Under the pieces are notes generated by a model. That model searched no databases and was not told the origin of the DNA. It saw only the letters and a list, made by a program, of their open reading frames with translations. Shown here piece by piece: positions 5,773-47,700 of a stretch of 61,044 nt of DNA. The translations under genes and the position numbers were made by a program. This DNA comes from a virus (taxonomy: Duplodnaviria > Caudoviricetes), in the IMG/VR virus record IMGVR_UViG_3300036770_001422, positions 1 to 61,044 of that record; one strand, given 5' to 3'. How positions within the stretch are numbered: position 1 is the stretch's first letter; every line of letters begins with the position of its first letter.

Positions 5773-7230
5773 TCATTGGGTAACTGTTAAATCTAAGAAA
5801 GTTCCGTTTCTTAAGCGTAATGGGTACACTCTTAATACTGGTACAGGGCTTGAAGTATATGTTGTAGTATCTCTTAATTCTACTGTAATATAATTCGTAG
5901 GCATTGTTTTCCAGCCCAGTGTTTGCGCACCGCCGTCAGCAACAATACCTAAAACCTGTTGTGTTGTACCGGTTGCATTTGGAACAATGAACGATGCATT
6001 GTTTGCTGTGCTAGGTACAAGAAAGTTTATTGCATTACCTGATCCGTTTTGAAATGATAACTGATTACTATTACCAAGTACAGTAACATTACTAACTGTT
6101 AATACATTAGAAACCTTATTCCATAAGAACTTTCCACTACCTGCAAAGTTTCCGCTGTCATTAAACTGCACATATGTATTGAATCCACCTGGGCTTCCTG
6201 CCACGTTTCCCCAAGTTACATTACCATTACCATCTGTTATAAGTGCTTGTCCGTTACTACCACCACTGATAGTTAAGTTGCTCGTTCCACCTAAGTTAAT
6301 CTTGCTACCGGAAATTGTCATTACGTTAGCATTTCCGTTAGCACTAAATGTTATATCTCCACCTGCTGTAGCAATATCAATGTTAGAATTACCATTGCTT
6401 ACATTTGATACGGATGAAATAATAGTACTCCAACTTAAGTTACCATTACCATCTGTTATAAGTGCTTGTCCGTTACTACCACCTGTAATTAATATATTTG
6501 AATTGCTACCTAAATTACTAGTGCCATTAACTATTATTCCAGTACCTGTCACTGTCAATATATTTGCATTGCCATCGACAGTCATATAGATAGGACCATC
6601 TTGCAACGGAATATTTACATTACTTGTACCGTTTGCTAATTCACTTTGTGGTAGAATATTTGCTGTAGAAAATATACTAACTTCAATTTGTGATCCATTT
6701 GCAGGGGCACTATCAAATATAAGATTAGCGCCACTTAATGAATAAGCATCTCTTAATAATGATACACCATTATAATTAACGAAAGTTTGATCAATGCTTG
6801 CAGGGGTAACTGTTAGTTGGAATGTAGTCTCTACGCCATTACCTGTAAAGTCATTTACAGTAATATTGGCGCCACCTCCACCTCCACCGTTACCGCTAGG
6901 TGTTGTCCAACTTAGATTACCTGATCCATCTGTAGTAAGAACTTGTCCTACACTACCGCCTAAGATTGCGATATTACTTATTGTGCCTAAATTACTTGTC
7001 TGTTCAACTTTTAAACTTTTTATTGTTGCAAGAGAATTTGATACAACAATTGTATTAGACCAACTGCGTGTTCCGTTAACGTCAGATGTGAAGAAACTTC
7101 CATTGCTTGTGGGCACACCCAAATCAGGTTCAGCATTTTGTAGATTTAACCAATTATAACGGTTTGGGTCCGCATTTGTTGCTGGGACCTTTTTAACTCT
7201 ACCGCTGATTAATCCTGTATTTGTTCCCAT
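5773..7230 (-). CDS. Tail fibre/structural protein
   Basis: GGSNGQALITDGNGNLSW and NGNSNIDI modules and an FTGNGVETTF domain; lies within the fibre cluster. Confidence 0.6.
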   Translation of the reverse strand: MGTNTGLISGRVKKVPATNADPNRYNWLNLQNAEPDLGVPTSNGSFFTSDVNGTRSWSNTIVVSNSLATIKSLKVEQTSNLGTISNIAILGGSVGQVLTTDGSGNLSWTTPSGNGGGGGGANITVNDFTGNGVETTFQLTVTPASIDQTFVNYNGVSLLRDAYSLSGANLIFDSAPANGSQIEVSIFSTANILPQSELANGTSNVNIPLQDGPIYMTVDGNANILTVTGTGIIVNGTSNLGSNSNILITGGSNGQALITDGNGNLSWSTIISSVSNVSNGNSNIDIATAGGDITFSANGNANVMTISGSKINLGGTSNLTISGGSNGQALITDGNGNVTWGNVAGSPGGFNTYVQFNDSGNFAGSGKFLWNKVSNVLTVSNVTVLGNSNQLSFQNGSGNAINFLVPSTANNASFIVPNATGTTQQVLGIVADGGAQTLGWKTMPTNYITVELRDTTTYTSSPVPVLRVYPLRLRNGTFLDLTVTQ

Positions 7231-9322: not shown

Positions 9323-12300
9323 TTAAATTGTTCTAAACTGTGTTGTCCAAACTGTACTATTACTGCTTGATGGTGTAACTTGCAATGCAATGTTACCACC
9401 TACAACGTTGACTGCCAACACACCTGTTGCGCCGCCAATGGCAGCAGTAGCAAATGTTACGTAATCAACTGTTGATCCGTTTGTAACTGCGGTGACTGTT
9501 GCTACAGAATATTTTAATCCTGTTGAATCAACACCCTTAACAATAAATTCATATCCAGTGATGCCACTTGTTGGAACTGTTGCAATTGTTTGATTACCTG
9601 TAATAGCACTAGTTGTTACTGTTCCCCAATATACAGCAGTATTACCTAATATAATTGCATTACTTACGTTAGCATTGTTAGCAAATAATGTGCTTGAAAC
9701 GTTTAAGTTTCCTGTAACATTACCGCCTGTTGCTGTTACAACTAATGAAGTATTACCACCTGCTGTAATGTTAACATTGCCATTCGCTGTTGGTATCTCG
9801 ACATTACTTGTACCATTAATTAATGTACCAGTAAAGAAGTTAGCAGTTGCTAAGTTGCCTAAGTTTGCATTGGCAGCATTAATATTACCGGTAAAGTTTG
9901 CGGTGTTGCCGGCAAGTTCTAAATTAACTGCTAGATTTGGTACTACGACATTACCACTAAAGTTTGCAGTATTACCAGCAAGTTCTAAATTAACTGTTAA
10001 GTTTGGTAATATTACGTTGCCACTGAAGTTTGCTGTATTACCGCTAAACTCTAAGTTTATTGTAGCGTTATTAGCAACAACGTTACCACTGAAGTTTGCA
10101 CTATTACCTGTAATAGCAGTATTAACTGTTAATGCATCAGTGATTGTAGTTCCGGATACATTTGCATTTGAAGCAAATACTGTTGAGTTTGCAGTAATAT
10201 TTGCAGCCAATACATTACCGGTTGCTTCAACATTACCACTTGCATTTAAGTTTAAACCACTTACGTTAGCATTAGAAGTAATTGCAAGATTTGCATCAAT
10301 ACTACCTTGAACTGTTAAGTTACCTGTAATGTTAGCAATATTACTAATACTTAAATTATTAGCAGTAACATTACCATTGCTTAATGTATTCCATGTCAAA
10401 CTACTAAATGTAGCATCACCAATATTTGGTGTTGTCAAATTAGCACTTGATTTAACAACAATGTTGCCACCAACAATATCAGTTGTTACTCCGTCTGTAT
10501 TAGCACTGATTGTTGTACCACTAATATTAATACCATTGCCTGCGGTGTATGAACCGGCAGCACTAAATTGAGTGAATGTTACACTATCAGTACCAATAAT
10601 GATTTCACCATCAGGAGCAGTTAATACATATGATTCACCTGCACCAGTAGTACCTTGGGATATGAATACATAGTCTCCCTTGCCCATACCATTTGGACTT
10701 GCAGGGATATACTTATCCATATCACTTGAACGTGTCATTATCCACGCTGCTGTAGCATTACCTATATCGCTAACAACATAGATACCGTTATGTGCAGAAT
10801 TTGCTTGAGTATAAACTAAAACACGATCTGTGTTCGCTAGTGCAATGCCATCAATACTAATTGCGGCATTTACACCTGCATTAGTAAGCGTTGCACCAAC
10901 ACCTGGATTTGCACGTGATGCTTCTGTTAAACCTGTACCATTTGTAAGTGTTGTAACTTCAGCACCAAAGTAACCATCTCTAATTGTGATTTGATTTAGT
11001 GCCGGAACTGTTTGAACCCAATATGCTTCACCACCAACGATACCGTTAAATGAGTTAGTCCAAACGATACCGTCGTTGACGCTCAATCCGTGATTTGCAC
11101 TGAATGTAATTGTTTTTCCACCAGTGATATCTGTAGTAGTCTGTGTTGTGCCACCTACTACATAAGTTGCATTCAATGCTGTTGGTGATTCAACACGAAC
11201 TGGGCTATGAATTGTTAAACCTGTGCCACCAATTGCGTCAACATATTCTTTAGTTGCCGCATCATTTGGATTTACTGGATCAGCCAATTGACTGATACGT
11301 GCTAATCCTAAATCAACTGTACCTGTACCACTTGGTACAAGATAAATGTTTTCGTTTGTTCCACTAGCACTAATTGTTAAATTACCAGATGTTGCAGTAA
11401 TGTTTGAAGTCATCAAACTACCAACATTAGCACGACCTGATATCTCTGCATTTGCAGCAACTACATTACCATTAGCAGTTACATTACCATTGGCTGTTAT
11501 ATTGCCTAATGTTGAATTAATATTACCAACAACATGCAATCCATCGCTAGCAAAAGTTGCAACGTTTGCTACGCCACCAATAGTGATTTCTACGTTCGCA
11601 TTACTGTAAACTTTTACGTTACTATTACCATTTGCTAATGGTCCAATTAAATTGGCTGCGGTAGCATTACCTGTAACATGTAGATCATTGGCTACGTTGA
11701 TATAGTTAGCGGTTGCTAAGTTACCTAAGTTTGCATTTAATGAAGTTAAGTTACCACTAAAGTTTGCAACGTTACCATTAAGGTCATTTGCTACGTTTAC
11801 ATAATTAGCGGTTGCTAAGTTACCTAAGTTTGCATTTAATGAAGTTAAGTTACCACTGAAGTTTGCTGTGTTACCTGCAAGTTCTAAGTTAACAGTTAAG
11901 TTAGGTAATACAACATTACCACTGAAATTTGCTGTGTTACCTGCAAGTTCTAAATTAACAGTTAAATTACTTGTGGTTATATTACTTGATACATTCACAA
12001 AATTTGCTGTAGCAAGATTACCTAAGTTGGCGTTGGCGGCAGTTAAATTACCACTAAAGTTACCTACGTTACCTATCAATGTGTTTGTTATATTTGCATT
12101 GCCTGTTACAGTAAAGACCTGCGTAGAATCATCATATGTAAAGTTTGCACTGGCTGCAAAATTATTACCCATATTATATTGAATTTGGGTATTGGCGCCG
12201 GCTGCTTCTTGGAAGTCCCAAGGTTGACCGTTTGCATATAATAAGTTGTCTGTTCTTAAATTGCCAACATTTGCTGTATCGGTAACATTTACGTTACTAG

Positions 12301-13162
12301 ATACATTGATAAAGTTTGCTGTTGCCAAATTACCTAAATCAGCATTAACTGCGGTTAAGTTACCACTGAAGTTAGCAACGTTACCTACTAATGTAGAGTT
12401 TACAGTTAAGTTTGGTAATATTACGTTACCACTAAAGTTTGCTGTGTTGCCTGCAAGTTCTAAATTAACAGTTAAATTACTTGTTATAACATTACTTGCA
12501 ACGTTTACATAATTGGCTCTTACTAGATTACCTAAATTTGCATTTAGTGTATTAACATTACCACTGAAGTTTGCTGTGTTACCTGCAAGTTCTAAGTTAA
12601 CAGTTAAGTTAGGTAATACAACATTACCTATAAAGTTTGCAGTGTTACCGCTTAATTCTAAATTGACTGTTAAATTATTTCCAATAACATTACTTGCAAC
12701 GTTTACAAAGTTTGCTGTAGCAAGATTACCTAAATCTGCATTGGCTGCTGTCAAATTACCACTGAAATTTGCAACGTTACCATTGACTTGATTTGCCACG
12801 TTAACATAATTTGCTATGGCAAGATTGCCAAGATTAGCATTAGTGCTAATAATATTGCCAACTACTTCTAGGACATTAGTTGAGGGATTGAAAGTAAAGT
12901 TAGCACTTGCGGCAAAATTGTTATTTAAATTATATTGAATTTCATAGTTGGCACCGGCTGCTTCCTGCATGTCCCAAGGTACGCCGTTACTATAATATAG
13001 GTTATCTGTTAATATGCCCCATGTTGCATTGGCATTTGATATTAACAAATTACCTGAAAATGTTGCGCCATTACCCGTAAAATAACCATTAGGGTAAATA
13101 ACGTTTGCGGGAGTTTCACCTACTGAGAAACCGCCGACTGAATTTAGTGGTTTAAGTGCCAT
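9323..13162 (-). CDS. Long repetitive tail fibre protein
   Basis: Many NLTVNLELAGNTANFSGN and ANLGNLATAN repeats; ADPVNPNDAATKEYVD neck-like motif; IDGIAL...DRVLV...NGIYVV fibre domain. Confidence 0.75.
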   Translation of the reverse strand: MALKPLNSVGGFSVGETPANVIYPNGYFTGNGATFSGNLLISNANATWGILTDNLYYSNGVPWDMQEAAGANYEIQYNLNNNFAASANFTFNPSTNVLEVVGNIISTNANLGNLAIANYVNVANQVNGNVANFSGNLTAANADLGNLATANFVNVASNVIGNNLTVNLELSGNTANFIGNVVLPNLTVNLELAGNTANFSGNVNTLNANLGNLVRANYVNVASNVITSNLTVNLELAGNTANFSGNVILPNLTVNSTLVGNVANFSGNLTAVNADLGNLATANFINVSSNVNVTDTANVGNLRTDNLLYANGQPWDFQEAAGANTQIQYNMGNNFAASANFTYDDSTQVFTVTGNANITNTLIGNVGNFSGNLTAANANLGNLATANFVNVSSNITTSNLTVNLELAGNTANFSGNVVLPNLTVNLELAGNTANFSGNLTSLNANLGNLATANYVNVANDLNGNVANFSGNLTSLNANLGNLATANYINVANDLHVTGNATAANLIGPLANGNSNVKVYSNANVEITIGGVANVATFASDGLHVVGNINSTLGNITANGNVTANGNVVAANAEISGRANVGSLMTSNITATSGNLTISASGTNENIYLVPSGTGTVDLGLARISQLADPVNPNDAATKEYVDAIGGTGLTIHSPVRVESPTALNATYVVGGTTQTTTDITGGKTITFSANHGLSVNDGIVWTNSFNGIVGGEAYWVQTVPALNQITIRDGYFGAEVTTLTNGTGLTEASRANPGVGATLTNAGVNAAISIDGIALANTDRVLVYTQANSAHNGIYVVSDIGNATAAWIMTRSSDMDKYIPASPNGMGKGDYVFISQGTTGAGESYVLTAPDGEIIIGTDSVTFTQFSAAGSYTAGNGINISGTTISANTDGVTTDIVGGNIVVKSSANLTTPNIGDATFSSLTWNTLSNGNVTANNLSISNIANITGNLTVQGSIDANLAITSNANVSGLNLNASGNVEATGNVLAANITANSTVFASNANVSGTTITDALTVNTAITGNSANFSGNVVANNATINLEFSGNTANFSGNVILPNLTVNLELAGNTANFSGNVVVPNLAVNLELAGNTANFTGNINAANANLGNLATANFFTGTLINGTSNVEIPTANGNVNITAGGNTSLVVTATGGNVTGNLNVSSTLFANNANVSNAIILGNTAVYWGTVTTSAITGNQTIATVPTSGITGYEFIVKGVDSTGLKYSVATVTAVTNGSTVDYVTFATAAIGGATGVLAVNVVGGNIALQVTPSSSNSTVWTTQFRTI
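11705..12628. repeat. Intragenic direct repeats within the long fibre gene
   Basis: A 71-nt block is identical at 11850-11920 and 12558-12628. A ~50-nt block recurs at ~11705 and ~11804 (99-nt period). Confidence 0.85.
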
Positions 13163-13185
13163 TTAAAAATCCCCTGTCCTATCTA

Positions 13186-13193
13186 TATTTATC
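13186..13193 (-). promoter_or_regulatory. Late promoter GATAAATA
   Basis: Intergenic, upstream of the 13162 start. Confidence 0.7.
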
Positions 13194-13199
13194 AAAAAA

Positions 13200-14681
13200 T
13201 TACTCTTCATACACTGTCATTTGTATCTTATATGATGACAAATTAGTGGTTAATGGTTCAACGTAAAGCGTTACTGATGCTGGAGAAATGATGTTTCCAG
13301 GATCATAACCTACTGTTAAATTACCAACCAATCCATTAACATGTAACGAACTGTATTCGTTATAATTACATGTTGCTTGAAACATAACCGCAGATAATTT
13401 ACTTACCTGTCTATTACCTGATGTATTATCCGTTGCAATAACTGTATAATCTACACTAGAAACTGTGTTAGCATTCAATGATACTAATGCAGTATTAGAC
13501 ATTGTAGCGGTCGTTGCAAAATACACATTGGATCTAGAAAACTTATAAACACCTGATCCAATTTCAATACTATTTGCAATCAAGTTACCTGCAATGTTAA
13601 ATGTATTGGTTACTTCATTGAAAGTTAGATATGGGCTACCTCCAAAGTCACCTGAATCGTTATATTGAATTTGTGTATTGGCGCCACCAGGAGTACCATT
13701 ACCTCCACCGCCGCCACCTGCACTCCATGTTAAGTTACCAGTGCCGTCGGTTGTAAGTACATATCCATTAACACCACCTGATATGTGTATGTTTGCTAAT
13801 GTACCTAAATTAATATTTGGTGATCCTGAGAAGTTGACGTTTGCTAAACTTCTTAAACTTCCAGGATAATTTATTCTTAAGTTGCCGTTTACTGTTACAT
13901 TACTTGCGAATGTAGCGTTACCTGCTGATACGTTACGTGAAAGATTAATATTACCTGCAATAATATTACCTGAGAATGCTGCATTACCTGCGCTAGTTAT
14001 GTCTCCTGTAATATCCAAATATAATAAGTTACCTAAACTTGTAATATTAGACTGATCAGGTTCTGTTACGTAGTTTGCTAAATCTGATGTAATACCTGTA
14101 AGATAATAACCATTACCTACAAAATATCCATTTGCTTGTATATTGGCATTAGATGTTATATTACCTACGGCTGTGATATGACTTACTGCATTAACTGTAG
14201 GTACTGTAAGTGTGTTTGTTGTCTTGTCGAATACAAAATCTACGTCACCACCAAACACACCATTATCATTATACTGAACTTGTGTATTACTGCCACCTGG
14301 TACTGCTGCACCACCGTTTCCGCCGGCTGCCCAAGTTAGTCCGCCGGCGCCGTCAGTTTGTAAGAAGTAACCGTTATCACCGCCTAAAATGCTTAAACTA
14401 GACACATCGCCTAGTGTTAATACGTTACCACTCCAAGTTACATTAGGTATTCCACCAAAAGACCCGGCATTATTGAATTGTAATTGAGTATCGTTGCCAC
14501 CGGGTTGTCCTGTAAATGCTTGTCCGTTAGCAAATTTATAATATGTTGCATAAAAAACGTTAGCAGTAACATTACCAGTGGTGTTAACATTAGTTATAAC
14601 GTTGCCATTGGCGTCAATGACTGCAACCGCTGGTATACCTGATGTATAACCGCCTATACTGTTAAATGGTTCTGCTGACAT
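13200..14681 (-). CDS. Tail fibre/structural protein
   Basis: Three PGG.NTQ.Q(Y/F)N..G.FGG modules and two GY.L.TDG.G.LTW modules; N-terminus similar to the 7566 and 9323 genes. Confidence 0.65.
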   Translation of the reverse strand: MSAEPFNSIGGYTSGIPAVAVIDANGNVITNVNTTGNVTANVFYATYYKFANGQAFTGQPGGNDTQLQFNNAGSFGGIPNVTWSGNVLTLGDVSSLSILGGDNGYFLQTDGAGGLTWAAGGNGGAAVPGGSNTQVQYNDNGVFGGDVDFVFDKTTNTLTVPTVNAVSHITAVGNITSNANIQANGYFVGNGYYLTGITSDLANYVTEPDQSNITSLGNLLYLDITGDITSAGNAAFSGNIIAGNINLSRNVSAGNATFASNVTVNGNLRINYPGSLRSLANVNFSGSPNINLGTLANIHISGGVNGYVLTTDGTGNLTWSAGGGGGGNGTPGGANTQIQYNDSGDFGGSPYLTFNEVTNTFNIAGNLIANSIEIGSGVYKFSRSNVYFATTATMSNTALVSLNANTVSSVDYTVIATDNTSGNRQVSKLSAVMFQATCNYNEYSSLHVNGLVGNLTVGYDPGNIISPASVTLYVEPLTTNLSSYKIQMTVYEE

Positions 14682-21941: not shown

Positions 21942-24900
21942 TTAGATTAATGAATGCTTCAATAACTTGCTAGATGTGTCATTACCATCACTTAATTGTG
22001 CAATAACTTGATCCAACTTACCAGCCATCATTGAATACATTTCCATATTGGCTGCTAGCATTTCCTTAGTAACATCACTACCTGTTTCCATTTTAGACCC
22101 AGTTGCTTCTGCTAAAACATCTTTACTTTCTGGGCTACCGGCTTGTGTCTTAGCCAATTTCATTAGGATACTTTCAGTATCTAATGGCGCTGTAATTTCT
22201 AACCCATGATGCTGTACTGGATATCCTGTTTCAGGTCCGTCAGCAATTAAACCACCTGAAGCCTGCATAACACGTTCGCCACCTGCCTGTTGTCCACCTG
22301 GCATTTTTGACGAATACATTGCTACTTTTTGCAATACTTCACCACCTAAGTATCCTTGTCCCGGTTTAATTGCTGTTCCTGCAATCTGACTTGTTGCTAA
22401 TAACTGTGCTTGTTCAGCACTCATGCCACCTTTAGAATCTATACCCAATTTGCCAGCCATGCTTGACTGACCTTTTTGCATATACCAAGCAACAACTTCA
22501 CTTGCAACATTGGGATCATTTACTAAATCAGGATTCTCAACTAACCGATCATCACCAAATATTGCTTTACTTGCGGCTGCATAATTATTCTTACCAGTTA
22601 ACTGTATGTAACCTCTACCTCTGAACTTCCAGCCATCACCTGGTTCAGAGTTGCCCATACCTTTACCTAACTTAGTACCTGACCCATAAACAGCCTCAGC
22701 CATTTTTTCAGGGCTAGACTTCATTTCATTGATTTCTTCGTCAGTCTTACCTGCGGTTGCTGATTTGAATATACTTCTTATACGTTCATTACTTGTCTTA
22801 CTATAGTTAAGATTTTCATTCGTTACTTTACCACCAGACTCTTTCATTACATTTCCTAAAACAGCATTAATGTAATTTTGATCTGTCATGCCTCTCTTTT
22901 TAAGAGCCTCTGCAATACCACCAAGATTTTCTTTAACATCTTGTTTCATTGGTGGAGGTGCTGATGGCATGCTAGGTGGCATACCACTCATAATTGGTTT
23001 GCCGTCGCTAGATGTTATAGGTTTGCCATCACCTGATACTACTCCACCTGACACAGGGGCTTGAGCAACTGCGCCGGCTGCGCTTGCATCTTTTAGTTGA
23101 CTCTTAATTTTACCAATATCTAATAATGCGCTACCTAATACCCCTTTTATTTGATCCTTAACTTCTTTGGTTGCATCTTCAGGGCTAACTTCATCTAATG
23201 TACCTTTGATAACACTATCAAATTTAGTAAAGTTAATTGTTAGATTGGCTAGTGATTTATTAGATATATCCAACATTTGTTGGAACTGTCTTAGACTATC
23301 ATTAACAGTTTTACCTGTTTCTTGTTGTGACTTACCTAAATCTTCTACAGATGTGCTTGCCTTAAATATATTCTTTTGCATTTCATCAAATATATCTTGG
23401 CTAGTTTTAACCTTTTCGTCACCTGTAACAGGTTTCTTCATTTGATCCTGAATACTCTTGCTAGAAATGCCAAATTGTTTCATCATCTCAGACATATTCT
23501 TGTCTGGAGTCATTATCTTAGCGATTCTCTCTTCTGCACCCTTTTGCACTTCTGCTAATCTTGCTTCAGGACTTGCAGCAGTTGCGGCAATCATGCCTGG
23601 AATCATAGAAGGTTGTTCTTTAGGTCCTGTAGACTTAACATCTTTTTCTTGTCCAAATGCCATTGCATTTGAACGTAGTCCTTGAGGATTTGCTTTTTCT
23701 GCTTGTTCCGCAGGAGTAAGTTTAGGTTCTACCTTAACTGCTTCCTTTACCTCAGGGGATTTAGGTTCTATAGTAGGTGTCTTTGCTTGTGCTGACGGTA
23801 TAATTACGCCAGTAACCTTATCTAATAATCCTTTAGCACCTCGTCCTAATGACGCTAATATGCCGGCTGATTCTACAACTGGATCAGGTTTTTTCTCTGC
23901 GACAGGTATTGGTTTTGCTTCGGCTGATTCGGGTTTCTTAACTTCTGCTGGTTTTTGATCTGCCTTTGCTTCTACTTTCTTTGCTGCCTCTGCTGTTTTT
24001 GCATCAGCCTTTTCTGACATTTGATTAATGCCACTGGCTGCAGCCTTACCAACTGTTTCACCGCCCTTACTACCTAACCATCCACCAACTGCGGCGCCTA
24101 TTACGCCACCTATTATAGTTCCTACAACAGGTACAGCAGAACCTAATGCGGCTCCAGCGGCTGCGCCTGCCCATGCTCCTCCGGCTGCGCCTGCGGCTGA
24201 GCCTACACCTCCGCCTACTGCTTCAGTTTTCTTTTCTTTGGCTTCTTTTTCTGTTATCTCGCCTGACTTACGTTGTGCTTCAATGTCTTGATATTCATCA
24301 TAAGCACCTTTTGCAGCCATGCCTACGCCAACAACTGCACCAATTGCAGGTGCAGCCTTAGCAACACTTGCCAATGGGGTTGCTAACTTAGCAAGAGTTC
24401 CTGCACTCTTAGCAGCCTCAGCACCTCCCTTGACAAATCTTCCTGTCTTAGGATCTCTTGCTCTTGGCGTTCCTTTACCTTTACCCTTGCCTTTACCGTC
24501 TCCACCGCCAACTTTATCTAATAGTCCGCCCATACCAGCGGCTGTAGCAAGTTTAGATAACGCCATTGTAGCCGCAACAACTGCGGCTGTCATACCTACT
24601 ACTGCTGCGCCGGCTGCTAATATATTTCCTCTGAATGGATTAATTGCACCAATAAATGCATCACTTAATCTACGTGCTTGTCTTTCTAAATCTTCCTTAG
24701 TAGCAGTAGCATCTACGACACCTTGACCTTCTTGACCCTCTTCTTTTTTGGCCTTTAATTCTTCTTCTTTAGCAGCCTTAGACTTGATCCAAGCGTCTTG
24801 TTCTTCTTTAGTTTTTAATTGTGCGAATTGTGCCGCACTTTGACGCATCTTATTATCAACACCAAATACGCCTTGAATGTCTTTACTTGACTGACCCAAT

Positions 24901-26204
24901 GCATAACCTGCTTCACCAAATGTTTTAGTGAATCTTTCTGCGGCTTGAGCCTGTGATCCCAATAATTGTGCAGTTTGATTTTGACCTTTATTCAACTTTT
25001 CATTCATGGCAGCAACGTCAATACCTGCTCTAGCAAGTTTAGCGTTGTTTTCAGTGTATACTGTTGCGCCTTCTGTTGAAATAGATTCCATTACTGCGGC
25101 TGCATTTGCGGCACTCATAGTGCTTACAGCCATTTTAGCAAATTCATCTTTGGCTGCTACTGTTTGTCTAATCTGTGCAGCCTGTGCTTCTAATTCTTTC
25201 TTACGTGCGGCATCAGTTTCGTTACGTGCTTGTTCTTCAAGACCCAAAGCCTTTTGATCCATTGCAAATTTATATGCATTAAAATTCTCGTTTGCATTTG
25301 CAATGTCTAGTGCTTCTTGTTGTTTCTTAACACTAACACCGGTTAATTCTGATAATACATTTAATTGATCAATATAAGCAAGTGATGCTTTTTGTAATTG
25401 TTCAGGACTCTTTCTTAATGATTGACCTGCTTCAGTCTGTTGTCTAATATACGTTGCTTGGGCTTCCATCAACTGTTCTTGTGACATACCCAATCTACGA
25501 TATTGTTTTAACGTTTCATCACCGACGGCCGTAAATTTACTAAATGTTTTAATACCTTCACTAGCAGAACCACCTAACCCAATTAAACTAGTACCTGCTT
25601 CTTTAGCATGTTTAGTAAAGATACCAATATTATGTGAGGTAAAGCCTGCTTGCTTACCTAACTCCATAATCTGTTCTGCATTCATTGATGCAGCACCGCC
25701 GATTTCCGCTAGGTCGTCATAGGCTTTTACCATAGCGTCAGTCTGTTTTAAAACTGCACCTGATAGTTTTCCTAATGCCTCAACAGTAAATCCTAATGCT
25801 TTACCTAAGGGTCCAAAATTACTTAATACGCCACCAATAGCAGAAGTTGTTGACTTGATTGCACCTTCATACTTCTGAAAACCACTGGTTGTATCTAATA
25901 ATGCCGATGCAAAACCTTTAACTGCTCCCTGAGCAGACTTCAATGCTTGACTATAGTTCTCCATAGCCTCAGCATTCTTTTGTCTTGCTTGCTTTTCTAT
26001 CTCAGAAAGTTTAGTATTACCTTCAATTGCGGCGCTATTTTTATTGACAGCGGCTGTGTTTTGATTAGCGGATTGGTTGGTCTTGCCCATAGCACCGGCA
26101 AGAATACCCATTTGTTCGGCTACGAACTTCATGTTTTGACTGATTTCGTTTGTAGCCTGACGTATAGAATCTACTGATTCGTTTAAATTATTTTCATCCG
26201 CCAT
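21942..26204 (-). CDS. Tape-measure-like protein with C-terminal glycoside hydrolase 19 (lysozyme/chitinase-like) domain
   Basis: Long helical Ala/Gln-rich region and a Gly/Ala hydrophobic segment, followed by GNVMKESG and MGNSEPGDGWKFRGRGYIQLTGKNNY (GH19 signature). Confidence 0.75.
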   Translation of the reverse strand: MADENNLNESVDSIRQATNEISQNMKFVAEQMGILAGAMGKTNQSANQNTAAVNKNSAAIEGNTKLSEIEKQARQKNAEAMENYSQALKSAQGAVKGFASALLDTTSGFQKYEGAIKSTTSAIGGVLSNFGPLGKALGFTVEALGKLSGAVLKQTDAMVKAYDDLAEIGGAASMNAEQIMELGKQAGFTSHNIGIFTKHAKEAGTSLIGLGGSASEGIKTFSKFTAVGDETLKQYRRLGMSQEQLMEAQATYIRQQTEAGQSLRKSPEQLQKASLAYIDQLNVLSELTGVSVKKQQEALDIANANENFNAYKFAMDQKALGLEEQARNETDAARKKELEAQAAQIRQTVAAKDEFAKMAVSTMSAANAAAVMESISTEGATVYTENNAKLARAGIDVAAMNEKLNKGQNQTAQLLGSQAQAAERFTKTFGEAGYALGQSSKDIQGVFGVDNKMRQSAAQFAQLKTKEEQDAWIKSKAAKEEELKAKKEEGQEGQGVVDATATKEDLERQARRLSDAFIGAINPFRGNILAAGAAVVGMTAAVVAATMALSKLATAAGMGGLLDKVGGGDGKGKGKGKGTPRARDPKTGRFVKGGAEAAKSAGTLAKLATPLASVAKAAPAIGAVVGVGMAAKGAYDEYQDIEAQRKSGEITEKEAKEKKTEAVGGGVGSAAGAAGGAWAGAAAGAALGSAVPVVGTIIGGVIGAAVGGWLGSKGGETVGKAAASGINQMSEKADAKTAEAAKKVEAKADQKPAEVKKPESAEAKPIPVAEKKPDPVVESAGILASLGRGAKGLLDKVTGVIIPSAQAKTPTIEPKSPEVKEAVKVEPKLTPAEQAEKANPQGLRSNAMAFGQEKDVKSTGPKEQPSMIPGMIAATAASPEARLAEVQKGAEERIAKIMTPDKNMSEMMKQFGISSKSIQDQMKKPVTGDEKVKTSQDIFDEMQKNIFKASTSVEDLGKSQQETGKTVNDSLRQFQQMLDISNKSLANLTINFTKFDSVIKGTLDEVSPEDATKEVKDQIKGVLGSALLDIGKIKSQLKDASAAGAVAQAPVSGGVVSGDGKPITSSDGKPIMSGMPPSMPSAPPPMKQDVKENLGGIAEALKKRGMTDQNYINAVLGNVMKESGGKVTNENLNYSKTSNERIRSIFKSATAGKTDEEINEMKSSPEKMAEAVYGSGTKLGKGMGNSEPGDGWKFRGRGYIQLTGKNNYAAASKAIFGDDRLVENPDLVNDPNVASEVVAWYMQKGQSSMAGKLGIDSKGGMSAEQAQLLATSQIAGTAIKPGQGYLGGEVLQKVAMYSSKMPGGQQAGGERVMQASGGLIADGPETGYPVQHHGLEITAPLDTESILMKLAKTQAGSPESKDVLAEATGSKMETGSDVTKEMLAANMEMYSMMAGKLDQVIAQLSDGNDTSSKLLKHSLI

Positions 26205-26274: not shown

Positions 26275-27105
26275 ATGGATTCAATGACAAACCCACTCAG
26301 ACAGTATTTCCGCAGACCCGCAGTATACTTAAAATTACCCAGCGGAGGAAAAGGATATACACCTGAGGTGCTAACAATGCCTGAAAACGGGGAAATTCCA
26401 GTATATCCAATGACCGCAATCGATGAGATTACTGTTAGAACACCTGACGCATTGTTCAACGGGGTAGCAATCGCTGAACTTATTAAGAGTTGCGTACCTG
26501 CAATTCATGATCCATGGAAAGTCAATAGTATAGACTTTGATGCGATCCTTATTGCAATCAAAGCAGCGGGCGGATCTGGGGAACTAGAAATAGAAAGTTT
26601 ATGCCCAAACTGCAATGAAGAAGCAAAATATGCATTGAATCTAATGAGAGTATTGGCTACATTAGAAGCAGGAGATTATACATCACCACTGGTTATCAAT
26701 GAACTTCAATTTAAGTTTAGACCATTGACTTATAAAGAAATGAATGAGGCTGCTATCGGTCAATTTGAAGTGCAACGTATTTTTAATGCTGCCGCACAAA
26801 AAGAAACTGATGAAGAAAGAAATAAAGTAACACAAGAAGCATTTAAGCAAGTTACTGAATTGACAATGAAGTTGCTTACTCAGGGTATTGAATTTATCAA
26901 AACTCCAAACGCAATGGTAACAGAAAAAGAATTCATATTAGATTTCTTAAGAAACTGTGACAAGACTGTATACTTAAAAGTTCGTGACCATAGTGCAGAA
27001 CTTAGAATGAAAACAGAAATGAAACCATTAGATGTTAAGTGCGTTAATTGCAATCACGAATACAAACAACCATTCACATTAAACCCATCTGATTTTTTCG
27101 AATGA
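26275..27105 (+). CDS. gp26: Baseplate hub subunit (gp26-like)
   Basis: YLKLPSGG, CPNC, KFRPLTYKE and C-terminal CVNC motifs; divergent from the tape-measure-like gene. Confidence 0.75.
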   Translation: MDSMTNPLRQYFRRPAVYLKLPSGGKGYTPEVLTMPENGEIPVYPMTAIDEITVRTPDALFNGVAIAELIKSCVPAIHDPWKVNSIDFDAILIAIKAAGGSGELEIESLCPNCNEEAKYALNLMRVLATLEAGDYTSPLVINELQFKFRPLTYKEMNEAAIGQFEVQRIFNAAAQKETDEERNKVTQEAFKQVTELTMKLLTQGIEFIKTPNAMVTEKEFILDFLRNCDKTVYLKVRDHSAELRMKTEMKPLDVKCVNCNHEYKQPFTLNPSDFFE

Positions 27106-27329
27106 GGCTTCTAAATCTCGCCCCAGAGGGAATTCAGAAGCTTATTGAAAACTATGAGAAGGAAGTGGGGAACATCAAAAAGTCTGCCATTTCCTATGCT
27201 TGGTACCTTAGAGGTGGTATTTCATATGAAGATATATTAAACATGTCATATGAAGAACGGAATTATCTAAGTGACCTAGTAGAAAGTAATTTGGAAATCA
27301 CTAAGAAATCTAATTTGCCTTTCTTCTAA
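27102..27329 (+). CDS. Small baseplate hub assembly protein (gp51-like)
   Basis: ATGA overlap with the gp26-like gene; motif ISYEDILNMSYEER. Confidence 0.6.
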   Translation: MRLLNLAPEGIQKLIENYEKEVGNIKKSAISYAWYLRGGISYEDILNMSYEERNYLSDLVESNLEITKKSNLPFF

Positions 27330-27763
27330 GTTGTCCTGCGGACAACTAATACCTTCACTTGTACTCGCTATCGCTCGTACTACGTTCGGTATTATATTTT
27401 TATATGGATTTATATTGCCGCCTTTGAAGCCATGGTAGTGCTATTCAGCACTACCAATGGTAAAGGACATTGCCACGCCCTATCGCCATGTGCCATCTAT
27501 TCCCCGTCAAACTAGCCCGTTTGCTGTTTAACGCTACCGGTTGCCCTGTAAAGTTTATGGGACTGTAGTGAGATACTGTTACATATCTCGGCAACGCATG
27601 TTACATATCCGCAAGACAGAATTAGATATGTACTCATTGAGGGTTCGCAAACCTGTCGATTGCCCTCTCGGTTTTCCGTAGATGTTACTCTACGCTTACT
27701 CCAGATCCGTCGGCGATATTTCACGCTTCCTCAAGGAGGGTCGGCACCCGACCAGCAAATTGT
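27329..27763. other. Highly structured non-coding element (candidate RNA-primed replication origin or large ncRNA)
   Basis: About ten inverted repeats in 430 bp, GC-richer than the flanks, a long-range stem (27412-27420 with 27711-27719), an AT-rich tract and a pas-like hairpin. Confidence 0.6.
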
Positions 27764-28333
27764 TTATAATTGATGTAAAGTTGATAAAACGTCAGTTGTG
27801 ATTGTGTTTAATGGCATTGTGCCTGTTGAGCCTGAATAAGATTTAAGTACGTCTTTGTTGTGTTTAAAGAAATGATCAAATTCAATAATGAGCCAATCTT
27901 TATGTTTACTTGATGTATAATATAAAAATTGATCGGTTACCCAAGTCATTGTAGTTTGTACTACAACAAATTTACCCTTGCGGTTAAATTTCATAAACAA
28001 TATGTTCATGTCGTTGGGTTCTGCTACTGACATAAGTTGGTCTAACCATCCATCTAACACTTTACAGTCACCTGTTAGTACTAAATGAAATGGGAAATCT
28101 GCATAAGATTTACATTCTGCATTGAATTTAGGGAAACTTTGTCCTGGAACAATATCTCCCTTAAAACTACGCACTTGATCCTCATGCAAATATTGTTTAC
28201 GTTGTTGATTTTTACCACCAACGTATGCGCCTGATCCTGGAGCACGTATAAAACTTTCTCCATAAAGGTCACTGAGAAATTTTGCAACTTCTCTTTCAAA
28301 ACTTGATCCCTTTGCTTTCTGTGGACTAGGCAT
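27764..28333 (-). CDS. Holliday junction resolvase-like PD-(D/E)xK nuclease
   Basis: KAKGSSFEREVAKFL...F.RAPGSGA...GDI...AECK, an Hjc-like pattern. Confidence 0.75.
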   Translation of the reverse strand: MPSPQKAKGSSFEREVAKFLSDLYGESFIRAPGSGAYVGGKNQQRKQYLHEDQVRSFKGDIVPGQSFPKFNAECKSYADFPFHLVLTGDCKVLDGWLDQLMSVAEPNDMNILFMKFNRKGKFVVVQTTMTWVTDQFLYYTSSKHKDWLIIEFDHFFKHNKDVLKSYSGSTGTMPLNTITTDVLSTLHQL

Positions 28334-28347
28334 ATATTAATTTATTC

Positions 28348-29361
28348 TCACCATTCGGTAGCGTAATTTTTTGTGACAACATTACTTGCACATTTGGTCT
28401 TGCATTCGAAATTCTCTAACATAAATTCACTAGACCAAAAAGGATCATTGATAACTTCTGACAATATATTGTCATGTAAGTTATATTTTTTACCCAAATC
28501 AAACCAAGAATTATTATGAGAATAGCGATTTGCCACCCAACAGCAGGGATAGAACTCGCCCCTACTATTTATATAAAGCCCCTTATTACCGATATAACAA
28601 AGGGGTTTTATACTATTATCCACTTCTTTAACATTATTATAGAAATGAATATTAGTCTTTAACCACGATTCTTTTGGCAATCTACCAGATAAATTCGTGA
28701 TTTCCCGTTCATAGCGATGTGTAGAACTTATCCATTTATCACTAGGTTGTAGTATGTCAGATACTCCATAATTACTGTAAACTTTAGCAAATTTAGTACT
28801 TTTTGTAAGTTGGAAACTATCAAAACCCATACGTTTTGCTATAGATTTCATGTGTTCTAACTTATCTTCATTGAACTTAAATGCTATAGCATCCCAACTT
28901 TTATAACATTTACTGTGTTTAATTACAGTACGTGCGCCAATCATGATGCTATCCCAATTAGAATTTACACGATATTGCTCGTTACTTGCTTGATCCCATC
29001 CATCTAGACTAAAATGTATCTGATCATTTTCGTCTAATTCAATGGCTAAATCAGTCCACCAACCTTGATTCTTATATGATCCGTTAGTTACTATTACTAT
29101 GGAAATAGGTTTAATAGACTTAAGATATCTAATAATTTCTACGAATTCATGCGCATAGATAGGATCTCCGTCATCTCCGCAGAAAGTTATTTTTTCTACA
29201 TTTGATTTAACGAATTCACTAGTAAAGTTCTTTTTGAAAAAGTTTAAATCTAATTCAGTATTGATCAATGAGTCAGGAACTTCAGACCTAGCACACCGTG
29301 GGCATTTCAATGTACATTTACTAGAAACTTCAATGTGCCAATGCCAAAGTGCAAAACTCAT
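28348..29361 (-). CDS. Radical SAM protein with SPASM/twitch-like C-terminal domain
   Basis: CTLKCPRC (CxxxCxxC), TNGS, FSLDG and YRVN motifs; C-terminal C...INSRGEFYPCC...CKTKC. Confidence 0.9.
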   Translation of the reverse strand: MSFALWHWHIEVSSKCTLKCPRCARSEVPDSLINTELDLNFFKKNFTSEFVKSNVEKITFCGDDGDPIYAHEFVEIIRYLKSIKPISIVIVTNGSYKNQGWWTDLAIELDENDQIHFSLDGWDQASNEQYRVNSNWDSIMIGARTVIKHSKCYKSWDAIAFKFNEDKLEHMKSIAKRMGFDSFQLTKSTKFAKVYSNYGVSDILQPSDKWISSTHRYEREITNLSGRLPKESWLKTNIHFYNNVKEVDNSIKPLCYIGNKGLYINSRGEFYPCCWVANRYSHNNSWFDLGKKYNLHDNILSEVINDPFWSSEFMLENFECKTKCASNVVTKNYATEW

Positions 29362-33091: not shown

Positions 33092-33140
33092 ATCATAGCA
33101 AATTTACCCGCAACTATACAAGTTAAACGGGTAAAATTTG
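33092..33140 (-). promoter_or_regulatory. Sigma70-like promoter of gp55 with overlapping inverted repeat
   Basis: TTGTAT-18 nt-TATGAT with extended -10 TG. Inverted repeat CAAATTTACCCG (33099-33110) / CGGGTAAAATTTG (33128-33140). Confidence 0.55.
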
Positions 33141-44764: not shown

Positions 44765-47700
44765 ATGGCTACAACAAGAATTAGAACATTAAATTTCTTA
44801 CCAGAAATATTTCAGACTCCTACCAACACTCAGTTTTTAGGAGCAACATTAGATCAATTAGTAAATCCTCCAATCACAAAAAGGATTGAAGGTTATATTG
44901 GTAGTAAGTTGGGTTATGGCGTTAACGCTAAAGATTATTATGTAACCGAACCCACAAAGGTAAGAACGGATTATCAATTAGATCCGGGTGTAGTCTTTAC
45001 TAAAAAGAACGAATCAACTGCACAAGATTTTATAACATATCCAGGTATCATTGATTCATTAAGATTGGAAGGCGGTGTTACTAACAATAATGACCGCATG
45101 TTTGAAAGCCAATTCTATTCATGGGACAGTTTTACAGACCTTGACAAGATTATTAACTTTAATCAATACTATTGGTTACCAGACGGACCTCCCGCAGTTC
45201 AAGTAGCGGCAGCAACAGTATTTGCTACGAACGATTACATTATCACTGACTTAGCAAATGGCTACAATATTAGAACATTAGGCTCAGGCGCAGGATCAAT
45301 TAATCCTACTTTGATCTTATTAAGAGGTGGTACTTATAATTTTTATGTAAATCAAAGTTCACAGTTTTGGATTCAAACTGCACCCGGTACTAGTGGATAT
45401 GATCCAACACAACCTAACATATATACCAGAGATGTATTTGGTGTATCTAATAATGGAGCAGAGCAAGGCATTGTAACATTTACTGTGCCTGCAAAAGACG
45501 CACAGGATCAATATAATTACCCTGGTAATAATTTAGTAGACGTTGTTTCTACAACACCTTTCGATCAAATCAATGGACAATTACTATCAACAGTTGGTAG
45601 CATTGACGGAGTAACATCACTTAACGGGTTAACCGTTATGTTCTATGATACTGGTGTACCAAACGAAACAGGATACACATCACAATACTTTGGTGAAGGT
45701 GAGTACGATACAAACATTGATTTAGTTGCACCATTAACAATTTCAATTTCAGCAACAGACGTATTAGGTGCAATCACATGTAGTTCTACTGCAAACTTAG
45801 TATCAGGTCAAACAATTACATTTGATGGAACACCATTTGGCGGACTAGATTCATATGCTGTCTCTGGTACAATTTATTATGTTGACAGTATTTTAAGTTC
45901 GACTCAATTTACTGTTACCTCTTATCAAGCAGGATCATCAACTCCACAACCAGTTACATTATCAACTGCTTTTGGATTTATGACTGGTAATATTAATCAG
46001 GGTTTATTAGAAGAAGGATATACTTCAACAGTAAGCCAAAACTTTTATCAAATAACTTATGTTGGCGATCCTAGTGACCCTGTGTTAAGACTTACTCCTG
46101 TTAGCGTAATACCTACAGAGCAGAGAATAACACCTGTTTATGGTTCATCTTGGATTGGCAGAGGATTCTATAGAAATACATTAGGCGTTATCGCATTGAT
46201 TCCTGCTATCACAGCACCATTAGATACATTATATTATCAAGATGGTACTAGTCCTAACAAAGTTGGTATTATTAAAATTATTGAAAGTAATATTACTAAT
46301 ACCCTTAATGTAGAAACAGACATATTAGGTAAAAAGAATTTTACTTCTACCAATGGAATAACATTTACAAATGGATTAAAAGTTGAATTTGACGGTGACG
46401 TTATACCGTCAAGTTATCTACAAGGTCAATACTATGTAGAAGGTGTAGGTACTGCTATTGAATTAATACCTGTAACTACTTTAGTGTGTCCTGAAGATTT
46501 CACTGAAGGTGATTACATACCGTATGATACTGCACCTTATGATATAGGTAACTATGATAGTAACTTGTTTGTACCTGTATTGCAAGATTATATTACAATT
46601 TCAAGAGCAGGTATTAATAAAAATGCGTGGTCACGTAGCAATCGTTGGTTTCATATTGATGTAATTAATGCAACAGCAGAATACAACAATGATCCAAATA
46701 TTGTTAACTTATATGCAACTGCGGATGCTAAAGCAAAGCGCCCTATCATAGAATTTTATCCTAACTTAAAACTATTTGATGCAGGAACAGTTGGTAAAAA
46801 CGCTATTGACTTTATTGATTTTAAATCAACTGACGCACTATCACAGGTTGCAGGTCAAACTGGATTTTATCCTGACGTAGAAACTTATACTGCGTATACA
46901 GGAACATTAAATGGCGTAGTAAGTGGTACATCAACTACAGCAATTATTGATACCACTGATATTGTTGGAGCATTCCAAATTGGTCAATATGTAACAGACT
47001 TACGTTTTAGTACATCAACTATGACCTATCCAAGTGTATTACCTAGTGATGCACAGATTACCGATATCGTTGAAGCAAGTGGTACTACAACATTGACGAT
47101 TGGTTGGGTAGATTCAATCTCTTTTGCTACAATTAATAATGTTCAATTCGTTGCAGATGATCAACAAAATGACAATTACAAAGTGTTTGATGGTGCAAGA
47201 ATTGTATTTGCATCAGATACCAATATTAATGTAAAGAATAAAATTTATGTTGTTAATTTTTCATCAGTTACATCAAGTTTACTTCCAGTAATTACATTGA
47301 CTGAAGCACCTGATGGTGAAGTATTACCAAAAGATCAAACAGTAGTATTAAGAGGATTTAACTATCAAGGTGATACTTACTTCTATGATGGTATTGATTG
47401 GTTAAAAGGTCAGCAAAAAACTGATGTTAATCAACCACCGTTGTTTGATGTTGTTGACAGCAACAATATAAGTTTTGGTGATACAGAAGTATATCGTGGT
47501 ACTACATTCATAGGCTCTAAATTGTTTGCCTATGGTATTGGATCAGGACTAGATGATACTATATTAGGATTCCCAATACGTTATAGTGCTATTGATAACG
47601 TTGGTGATATCAGTTTTGACGTATCATTGAATATTGATAAGTTTGATTATGTTAGCGGTACTGATCCTATAACACAAGACGTTAACACAGGTTATGTTTT

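Follow-up and report, generated by a model that had tools for sequence, protein, structure and literature searches.

The gap and its neighbors

What does a phage keep in the one long interval of its genome segment in which no gene is apparent? The window (the whole stretch of 61,044 nucleotides analyzed here) contains a single long ORF-free interval, 27330–27763 (434 nt; ORFs of at least 100 aa, open ends allowed). A preliminary description of this DNA had singled it out as the only long gap in 61 kb and as GC-richer than its flanks, and had proposed for it either a ColE1-like, RNA-primed origin or an undescribed large noncoding RNA. The first two statements are borne out: with open ends allowed, the ORF list leaves no other long gap, and GC content is 0.415–0.46 in 200-nt windows starting at 27300–27600 vs. 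approximately 0.31–0.39 in the flanks. A second candidate gap, 44765–61042, has no listed closed ORFs; it proved to be one giant open-ended ORF and was ruled out. As to the nature of the interval, we consider that its minus strand probably encodes a member of an uncatalogued family of large structured noncoding RNAs found in uncultured T4-related jumbo phages of aquatic habitats. What is new is the RNA family, not a demonstrated mechanism.

The element is bounded by the stop codon of a plus-strand ORF of 75 aa and the stop codon of a minus-strand nuclease ORF of 189 aa, which converge upon it (Table 1). The nuclease, labeled RusA-like resolvase in PHROGs, is complete relative to its homologue in phage PA5oct. 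Its 22 extra C-terminal residues form a variable tail rich in Ser, Thr and Asn; this tail is not basic, and the idea that it binds RNA was rejected. On the same strand, upstream of the nuclease, are genes for a radical-SAM/SPASM protein, SbcC and an SbcD-like phosphoesterase, together with a 296-aa ORF in the position occupied by the late sigma factor in the PA5oct annotation. The element is present in a single copy in the window, and ARAGORN finds neither tRNA nor tmRNA genes in the 61 kb. Positions within the element are also given in a numbering (el) that runs along the minus strand from el1 (window position 27763), such that the window position is 27764 − el.

Conservation and genomic position

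Relatives were drawn from IMG/VR on the basis of the nuclease (177 confirmed, of which 80 were taken) and of the hub protein (29). Blastn detects the element in 99 of 109 nuclease- and hub-derived loci, and a pattern made from invariant columns added at least 120 further viral stretches. The conservation in relatives that had been named at the outset as a check is evident: an nhmmer profile finds the element in 218 of 227 related loci, among the matches listed, the nine misses being loci at contig ends, distant relatives whose gene order differs, or a chance match to the pattern. The nhmmer hits, again among the matches listed, include 199 that are full length and 123 that are unique. Identity of the core to the window sequence has a median of 72% (range 64–92%).

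The family extends beyond these loci. When metagenome contigs were scanned with the pattern, 64 of the 80 loci listed, marine assemblies included, matched covariance model R1 (E≤0.01). The same pattern has 51 matches in species-representative bacterial and archaeal genomes, none of which matches R1; these are chance matches. For cultured phages, a blastn search with 27100–28000 drew no match from 50,697 phage records. Judged by the SbcC protein, the nearest cultured relatives are PA5oct-like jumbo phages (~50% identity), and the best score of R1 on the syntenic 19.7 kb of PA5oct, with filters off, is 8.8 bits, which is noise. PA5oct has a homologue of the nuclease (41% identical) with no such RNA nearby, and thus the nuclease does not need the RNA. 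More distant relatives, in which the hub protein is 33–47% identical, have another gene order and no match to R1.

Where the element is present, its surroundings hardly vary. The nuclease lies upstream and the convergent 75-aa ORF downstream in 188 of the 199 full-length loci among the matches listed; of the other 11, ten lack sequence on one side and one lacks a detectable nuclease. Among loci with upstream sequence, the nuclease is upstream on the same strand in 193 of 194, and the distance from its stop codon to the CUCC box of the element (see below) is 9–72 nt (median 34). The element is widespread in jumbo phages of lakes and of the sea, and it is fixed at one genomic position.

Strand and expression

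Folding energies were compared with those of shuffled sequences for each strand. The minus strand folds with −145.5 kcal/mol (z = −4.85), a value equaled or bettered by 0 of 100 shuffles, and the plus strand with −124.2 kcal/mol (z = −2.36), equaled or bettered by 2 of 100; the better-than-shuffled folding that had been suggested as a check is thus found, most strongly on the minus strand. The strand is also marked by the mismatches that helices tolerate. Across the 51 modeled pairs there are 141 G-U vs. 11 A-C cells, with G-U present in 27 pairs and A-C in seven. Helices H1 (98 G-U vs. 11 A-C cells), H2, H8 (39 vs. 5) and the H8 extension (66 vs. 0) each lean to the minus strand. The excess of G-U over A-C indicates that the structured molecule has the sense of the nuclease gene. 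Wobble pairs had been said not to settle the strand, a statement that is overturned once the family as a whole is considered. Structure in this interval is far beyond chance, and its strand is the minus strand. G-U tolerance would be equally compatible with single-stranded DNA of the same strand.

Signals of expression were sought in metatranscriptomes and in the sequence. In two true metatranscriptome runs (contigs only), coverage extends to parts of the nuclease gene but leaves out the element; two other runs (contigs only) cover the element and are probably DNA. A scan of 27000–28500 for the sigma-70 consensus, which leaves phage-specific promoters outside its reach, gave a match on the plus strand only and none on the minus strand; a consensus scan for terminator-like sites returned none, and the T4 late box TATAAATA shows no enrichment (2 vs. 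10 expected). By eye, an A-rich motif of AATT type is seen just ahead of H0. The RNA might be made as a 3′ extension of a recombination-gene transcript, which would comprise the late-sigma-like gene, SbcD, SbcC, the radical-SAM gene and the nuclease, or else from a start just before H0; to this proposal we attach about even confidence.

Covariation

RNAalifold, applied to 65 sequences, predicts 58 pairs, 34 of which change on both sides. An all-against-all covariation scan, run again with 200 unique sequences, contributed two pseudoknots as well as two isolated tertiary pairs. With both pseudoknots included, the model was evaluated on A2, an alignment of 79 sequences clustered at 93% identity: 98.1% of 3973 cells pair vs. 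81.4% in shuffles, changes on both sides are found in 38 of 51 pairs, and none of 500 shuffles reaches any of these measures. When the 3′ partners were slid by 1–3 columns, 30.9–38.9% of cells paired. Helices 1–4 and 6 are 96.6–100% paired in A2, and among their 30 pairs 21 have changed on both sides. Covariation, a further check named at the outset, is by these figures strong.

The same data bear on the view that the element is the remnant of a decayed gene, intron or mobile element, functionless today. Its GC content, being above that of the flanks, is what such a remnant might show. However, compensatory changes keep 98% of cells paired at only ~72% sequence identity, the position is fixed in 188 of 199 loci (among the matches listed), and there is one copy in the window. 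Nor is there a conserved reading frame: the core carries single-base indels, and the longest stop-to-stop frames, which fall on varying strands, reach a median of 69 aa. We find a functionless remnant scarcely credible.

Anatomy of the RNA

The order of features along the minus strand is given in Table 1. All six stems named in the preliminary description exist in the sequence, and five of them covary in relatives: H8 (27433–27456), H6/H6a (27540–27595), H5, H4 and H2. The sixth is H0; 193 of 200 unique members have a hairpin of at least 5 bp ending no more than 2 nt from the CUCC box.

Table 1. The element and its neighbors, from 5′ to 3′ along the minus strand (window coordinates).
Feature	Position	Strand	Description
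189-aa PD-(D/E)XK endonuclease	27764–28333	minus	upstream gene on the strand of the RNA; PF24608, E = 8.3e-26; phrog_244, E = 1.3e-19
H0	27739–27753	minus	6-bp hairpin; starts 10 nt past the nuclease stop and abuts the CUCC box
5′ domain	27699–27738	minus	P1 (CUCC 27735–27738 with GGAG 27699–27702) around hairpin H1 (27713–27726)
H2	27677–27694	minus	hairpin with covarying pairs; loop sequences read in relatives
Four-way junction core	27535–27673	minus	closing helix 27669–27672 with 27536–27539; encloses H4, H5 and H6
H4	27639–27667	minus	junction arm
H5	27598–27637	minus	junction arm
Pseudoknot 2, 5′ strand	27614–27619	minus	in the terminal loop of H5; pairs with 27493–27498
H6	27590–27595 with 27540–27545	minus	junction arm; carries the variable hairpin H6a
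Pseudoknot 1, 5′ strand	27559–27562	minus	UCCC in the internal loop of H6; pairs with 27501–27504
H7	27505–27533	minus	11-bp hairpin flanked by the closing helix and pseudoknot 1 (3′ strand)
Pseudoknot 1, 3′ strand	27501–27504	minus	GGGA immediately after H7; from covariation scan and A2
Pseudoknot 2, 3′ strand	27493–27498	minus	from covariation scan and A2
Box 1	27471–27481	minus	X, then C, one or two letters, then GGCAA; X = 27478
H8	27430–27460	minus	near-invariant 10-bp hairpin (27433–27456) with 3-bp extension; once in the window
Box 2	27414–27424	minus	X = 27421; GGCA part can pair with 27711–27715, the inner half of the long-range stem
A/U-rich spacer	27393–27413	minus	varies in sequence and length among relatives (alignment A1, columns 501–590)
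H9	27349–27392	minus	two-tier hairpin; loops with conserved GA..CGA..AG.GA motif
H10	27330–27346		7-bp hairpin with three-base loop; abuts the stop of the plus-strand ORF; strong covariation
75-aa ORF	27102–27329	plus	convergent on the element; comes after the gp26-like baseplate-hub gene
gp26-like baseplate-hub gene	26275–27105		ahead of the 75-aa ORF

In helix P1, Watson-Crick pairs fill 797 of 800 cells, the remainder being one G-U, one A-C and one other; the helix occurs in the variants CUCU/AGAG, CUUC/GAAG and CCCC/GGGG. The CUCC box had been considered as a mimic of the anti-Shine-Dalgarno sequence; it pairs with GGAG and changes in step with it, and the idea was rejected. The loop of H2 is in many relatives what we take to be a GNRA-type tetraloop.

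Two covarying pseudoknots lock the four-way junction: one ties the internal loop of H6 to the segment past H7, and the other ties the loop of H5 to the segment that follows. In A2, changes on both sides occur in three of four pairs of pseudoknot 1 (94.9% of cells pair), five of six pairs of pseudoknot 2 (99.2%) and nine of 11 pairs of H7 (97.1%); the strongest pair of pseudoknot 1 has an APC score of 168 and appears as five pair types. The two isolated tertiary pairs, el143–201 and el212–229, are standard pairs in 100% of cases. Position el229 is complementary to both el91 and el212, and the combination 91/229/212 reads UAU in 121, CGU in 23, CGC in 15 and AUA in eight of 200 sequences, which suggests a probable base triple (U-A-U / C-G-C) or an alternate pairing. 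Beyond the pseudoknots, H8 is 97% Watson-Crick over 2000 cells.

At the 3′ end, the equivalent of H9 in relatives has covarying column pairs that are 73–97% standard. The pairs of H10 (el419–423 with el429–433) are 96% Watson-Crick, with 13 G-U vs. 8 A-C cells, and a terminal hairpin of at least 6 bp is found in 185 of 200 members, the commonest loop context being CGAAG (105). Since H10 shows no strand preference it probably serves both convergent units, and is probably a bidirectional end or terminator hairpin. The long-range stem that had been thought to close a large domain (27412–27420 with 27711–27719) stands in part: its five inner pairs can form in 74–91% of ~170–190 sequences, whereas the four outer pairs can form in 24–79%. 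No compensatory changes were seen in this stem.

This arrangement raises the question of whether the element is anything other than a 3′ untranslated structure acting purely in cis, which would safeguard the recombination-gene mRNA at its end, or insulate and terminate the convergent units, and would have no function in trans. It is indeed found in the same orientation as the nuclease gene, at the 3′ end of that gene and 9–72 nt past its stop codon (193 of 194 loci with upstream sequence), and it does end in a stable, strand-neutral hairpin that abuts the convergent gene. Yet a core of ~330 nt with two pseudoknots and tertiary pairs would seem to exceed what end protection needs, the near-invariant unpaired segments and the parallel change of the two boxes (below) point to specific partners, and PA5oct and related phages with another gene order do without the RNA. 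We regard a purely cis-acting element as unlikely.

Comparison with known RNAs

To our knowledge, large intricately folded RNAs are rare, only about a dozen bacterial or phage classes being known. Those of the past proved to be ribozymes, guide RNAs or self-assembling cages. At gathering thresholds none of the 4227 models of Rfam 15 matches anywhere in the window, and with E up to 10 the region 27200–27900 gives chance hits of snoRNA type only. Across the 34.5 kb of 12 further loci the only matches are three weak ones, all far below their gathering scores. The Rfam run proposed in the preliminary description thus returned no known family, and its suggestion of an undescribed large noncoding RNA is supported by the strong conservation, the covariation, the two pseudoknots and the lack of an Rfam match.

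A search of the literature, with the supplementary tables of PMC10690425 outside its scope, found no description of the RNA. The article text of Fremin et al. 2023 gives 8,495 candidates from IMG/VR, averaging 67 nt, six of them ‘upstream of RusA’ (PMC10690425); fragments of the RNA may be among these candidates. By the annotation and the published account (PMC7318152), the four published ncRNAs of PA5oct sit elsewhere in its genome.

In its large intricate fold with several pseudoknots, its carriage by phages and its mainly metagenomic distribution (GOLLD is from lake water), the RNA resembles GOLLD and ROOL. These two are often found beside tRNA genes in phages or prophages, and RNA-only multimeric assembly has been described for them. 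However, neither covariance model matches, even at E up to 10; the RNA described here is smaller (a core of ~330 nt, ~430 nt in all), has no tRNA genes near it in the 61-kb window, and occupies one fixed site behind a nuclease gene in lytic-type T4-related jumbo phages.

A second comparison is with the core of group I introns. In both, a junction of several helices is closed by a long-range helix, after which come a hairpin and the 3′ strand of a pseudoknot (compare P3, P8 and P7). In contrast to group I introns, there is no Rfam group I match, there are no exons (the element lies between two convergent stop codons), the 5′ strand of the pseudoknot is enclosed by H6, and no joining segment separates the hairpin from the pseudoknot strand. 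The likeness nonetheless bears on the possibility of a new ribozyme, whose catalytic core would be the knotted junction and which would process itself from the operon transcript or act on other RNA. The size, the pseudoknotted core, the GNRA-type loops and the near-invariant letters of the junction recall large ribozymes, as does the P3-P8-P7 order of closing helix, H7 and 3′ strand. Set against this, no ribozyme family of Rfam matched with E up to 10 in the window or in 12 further members, the element, lying between two stop codons, has no exons, and no cleavage site can be inferred. A ribozyme seems to us distinctly unlikely. It and the cis-acting end element are the rivals to be weighed together with an origin of replication, which is the least likely of these three.

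An origin of replication

An RNA-primed or R-loop origin would have a folded transcript that hybridizes at the A/T-rich tract and primes DNA synthesis, the terminal hairpins serving as primosome or single-strand DNA signals. In the window the order is indeed a structured domain, an A/U-rich spacer and stable hairpins, relatives also have an A/U-rich spacer of variable sequence, and the element adjoins recombination genes. In these respects – a region of folded transcript, then an A/T-rich tract and hairpins, all next to replication and recombination functions – it is like ColE1 RNA II and the R-loop origins of T4. Some phage origins also carry very stable mini-hairpins with GNA loops, and this was counted in favor of an origin.

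Each of the proposed parts, however, has another explanation. The G-rich stretches assigned to the origin are the 3′ strand of pseudoknot 1 and one repeated box. The AT-rich tract is the spacer, which is conserved in neither sequence nor length. What had been called a pas-like hairpin is a set of two stable hairpins beside the stop codon of the neighboring gene, of which H10, strand-neutral, abuts that stop. The double pseudoknot, the probable triple and the near-invariant unpaired letters would appear to exceed the needs of known RNA-primed origins; what is conserved here is tertiary RNA structure and not an unwinding element. Neither a unit like the antisense RNA I nor a promoter was found (sigma-70 consensus scan, outside which phage-specific promoters lie). 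The cumulative GC skew of the window, which had been suggested as a check, has its minimum at 33119, at a divergent gene switch away from the element, and is flat around the element itself (−1256, −1231, −1254). As skew in phages largely follows transcription, this last result is weak evidence against an origin. The ColE1-like origin has gained no support from the analysis, and we judge it very improbable.

Two repeated boxes and possible partners

On either side of the near-invariant H8 are two boxes, 57 nt apart, which read alike and share one variable letter, X. This letter is identical in both boxes in 173 of 199 sequences (GG 116, UU 38, CC 17, AA 2) and differs in the remainder (G/A 18, C/A 7, U/C 1). 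On a FastTree tree made from columns el66–272, which lie outside the boxes, with all 200 unique rows, X changes at least 24 times per site, and the joint state only 26 times. Of 14 independent pairs on supported branches, ~12 had the second site following the first in the same direction, and in none did it go the opposite way (p ~0.0005). For U vs. non-U there are 12 pairs, ~12 of which moved the same way; for C vs. non-C the pairs are too few. The coupling score of X is 246, that of its next-best partner is 57, and a variable letter two positions from X does not follow it. From these last two observations simple linkage is unlikely. Coupling of identical letters is not base pairing; it would fit two equivalent sites for one partner, and would also fit two rivals that compete for a single strand and are kept in balance.

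We suppose that the molecule acts as a folded RNA in its own right rather than as DNA. Its likeliest mechanism, which we put forward tentatively and at less than even confidence, would be as part of a ribonucleoprotein or as a conformational device. The invariant hairpin and the boxes might present two equivalent docking sites to a partner present in two copies, or the boxes might compete for 27711–27715, while the knotted junction would provide a pocket or a scaffold. The evidence behind the docking or switch idea is the parallel change of the boxes.

A phage-encoded structured RNA working in a protein machine through repeated interaction sites has a precedent in the pRNA of phi29, which has these features. 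The resemblance stops there: no Rfam pRNA match was obtained, size and fold differ, and the contacts of pRNA are complementary loops, whereas here both boxes carry the same letter.

The omega RNAs of TnpB and IscB offer a different likeness. They too are pseudoknotted RNAs of a few hundred nucleotides, encoded immediately next to a nuclease gene in the same orientation and strictly co-occurring with it; here that adjacency holds in 193 of 194 loci with upstream sequence, at a median of 34 nt to the CUCC box. Unlike TnpB and IscB, which are of RuvC type, the nuclease is a small PD-(D/E)XK enzyme (PF24608), neither a variable guide segment nor transposon ends were identified (hypervariability is confined to the A/U-rich spacer), and the nuclease homologue of PA5oct does without the RNA. 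It is conceivable, though in our opinion quite improbable, that the RNA is the partner of the upstream nuclease, the four-way junction and the boxes docking a PD-(D/E)XK dimer of the type that acts on Holliday junctions. Were this so, the RNA would gate, aim or sequester a DNA-cutting enzyme, making it an RNA-controlled nuclease of undescribed kind, and the parallel change of the boxes would reflect co-evolution with the specificity of the protein.

The RNA offers features that can be tested: the two pseudoknots, the probable U-A-U / C-G-C triple and the unusual same-letter covariation of boxes 57 nt apart. RNA biologists have in it a new and well-defined object for binding assays, probing and cryo-EM. 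It also means that uncultured jumbo phages would carry RNA machinery that protein-centered annotation has missed.

Four further observations concern the boxes. No convincing complementary target for them was seen elsewhere in the window. They were also considered as alternative partners of the 5′ strand of H6; members with a changed H6 keep their boxes unchanged, and the idea was rejected. The strand 27711–27715 in the 5′ domain can pair with either box, with duplex energies that beat those of shuffled strands only modestly (−9.5 vs. −6.9 and −7.7 vs. −5.6 kcal/mol). Apparent same-letter links were found among el241, el287 and el347 as well; these trace to one divergent subclade, and so are phylogenetic.

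The resolvase-to-hub interval in relatives

In PA5oct, a cultured jumbo phage related by its SbcC protein, the resolvase-to-hub interval extends over 2.2 kb (12017–14207 of the syntenic stretch; 75666–77856 of the PA5oct record) and is annotated with only five small hypothetical ORFs of 117–453 nt, four of these being 117–153 nt. The covariance model of the element's RNA family (R1) gave no match to this 2.2-kb interval. Two distant relatives with another gene order (L108 and L109; hub protein 33% identical) each carry, near the hub gene, a 700-nt stretch (6237–6935) without an ORF of at least 70 aa; this stretch, too, gave no R1 match.

A pyrimidine mismatch beside P1

Adjoining helix P1 in the 5′ domain of the element is a U/C mismatch (el31/el60 in minus-strand element numbering; window 27733/27704). 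C/U is found instead in 10 of 200 family members, and a standard pair in none of the 200. The mismatch looks like a conserved pyrimidine–pyrimidine contact.

Genes of the window

Coordinates of genes and of one sequence run in the window.
Feature	Position	Strand	Basis
1,420-aa protein	21942–26204
gp26-like hub gene, 276 aa	26275–27105	+	ORF listing
TTTTTTC run	27093–27099		sequence reading
75-aa ORF	27102–27329	+	ORF listing
radical-SAM/SPASM protein gene	28348–29361
giant ORF, at least 5,426 aa	44765–61042	+	open-ended ORFs allowed

The TTTTTTC run is located 4 nt upstream of the hub gene stop: by frame arithmetic only, a −1 slip at this run would fuse the 75-aa ORF to the hub gene and yield a protein of ~351 aa. 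The 1,420-aa protein has both tape-measure-like and endolysin-like PHROG matches. Within the row of recombination genes, the radical-SAM/SPASM protein gene lies between SbcC and the nuclease. The PA5oct annotation has a structural protein at this position. The giant ORF continues past the window end and is left out of default ORF listings, with the consequence that the last 16 kb of the window appear empty.

The T4 late-promoter box TATAAATA occurs twice in the whole window compared to ~10 occurrences expected from shuffles. Despite this scarcity a late-sigma-like gene seems to be present in the window, and the late promoters of this phage's clade probably differ from those of T4.
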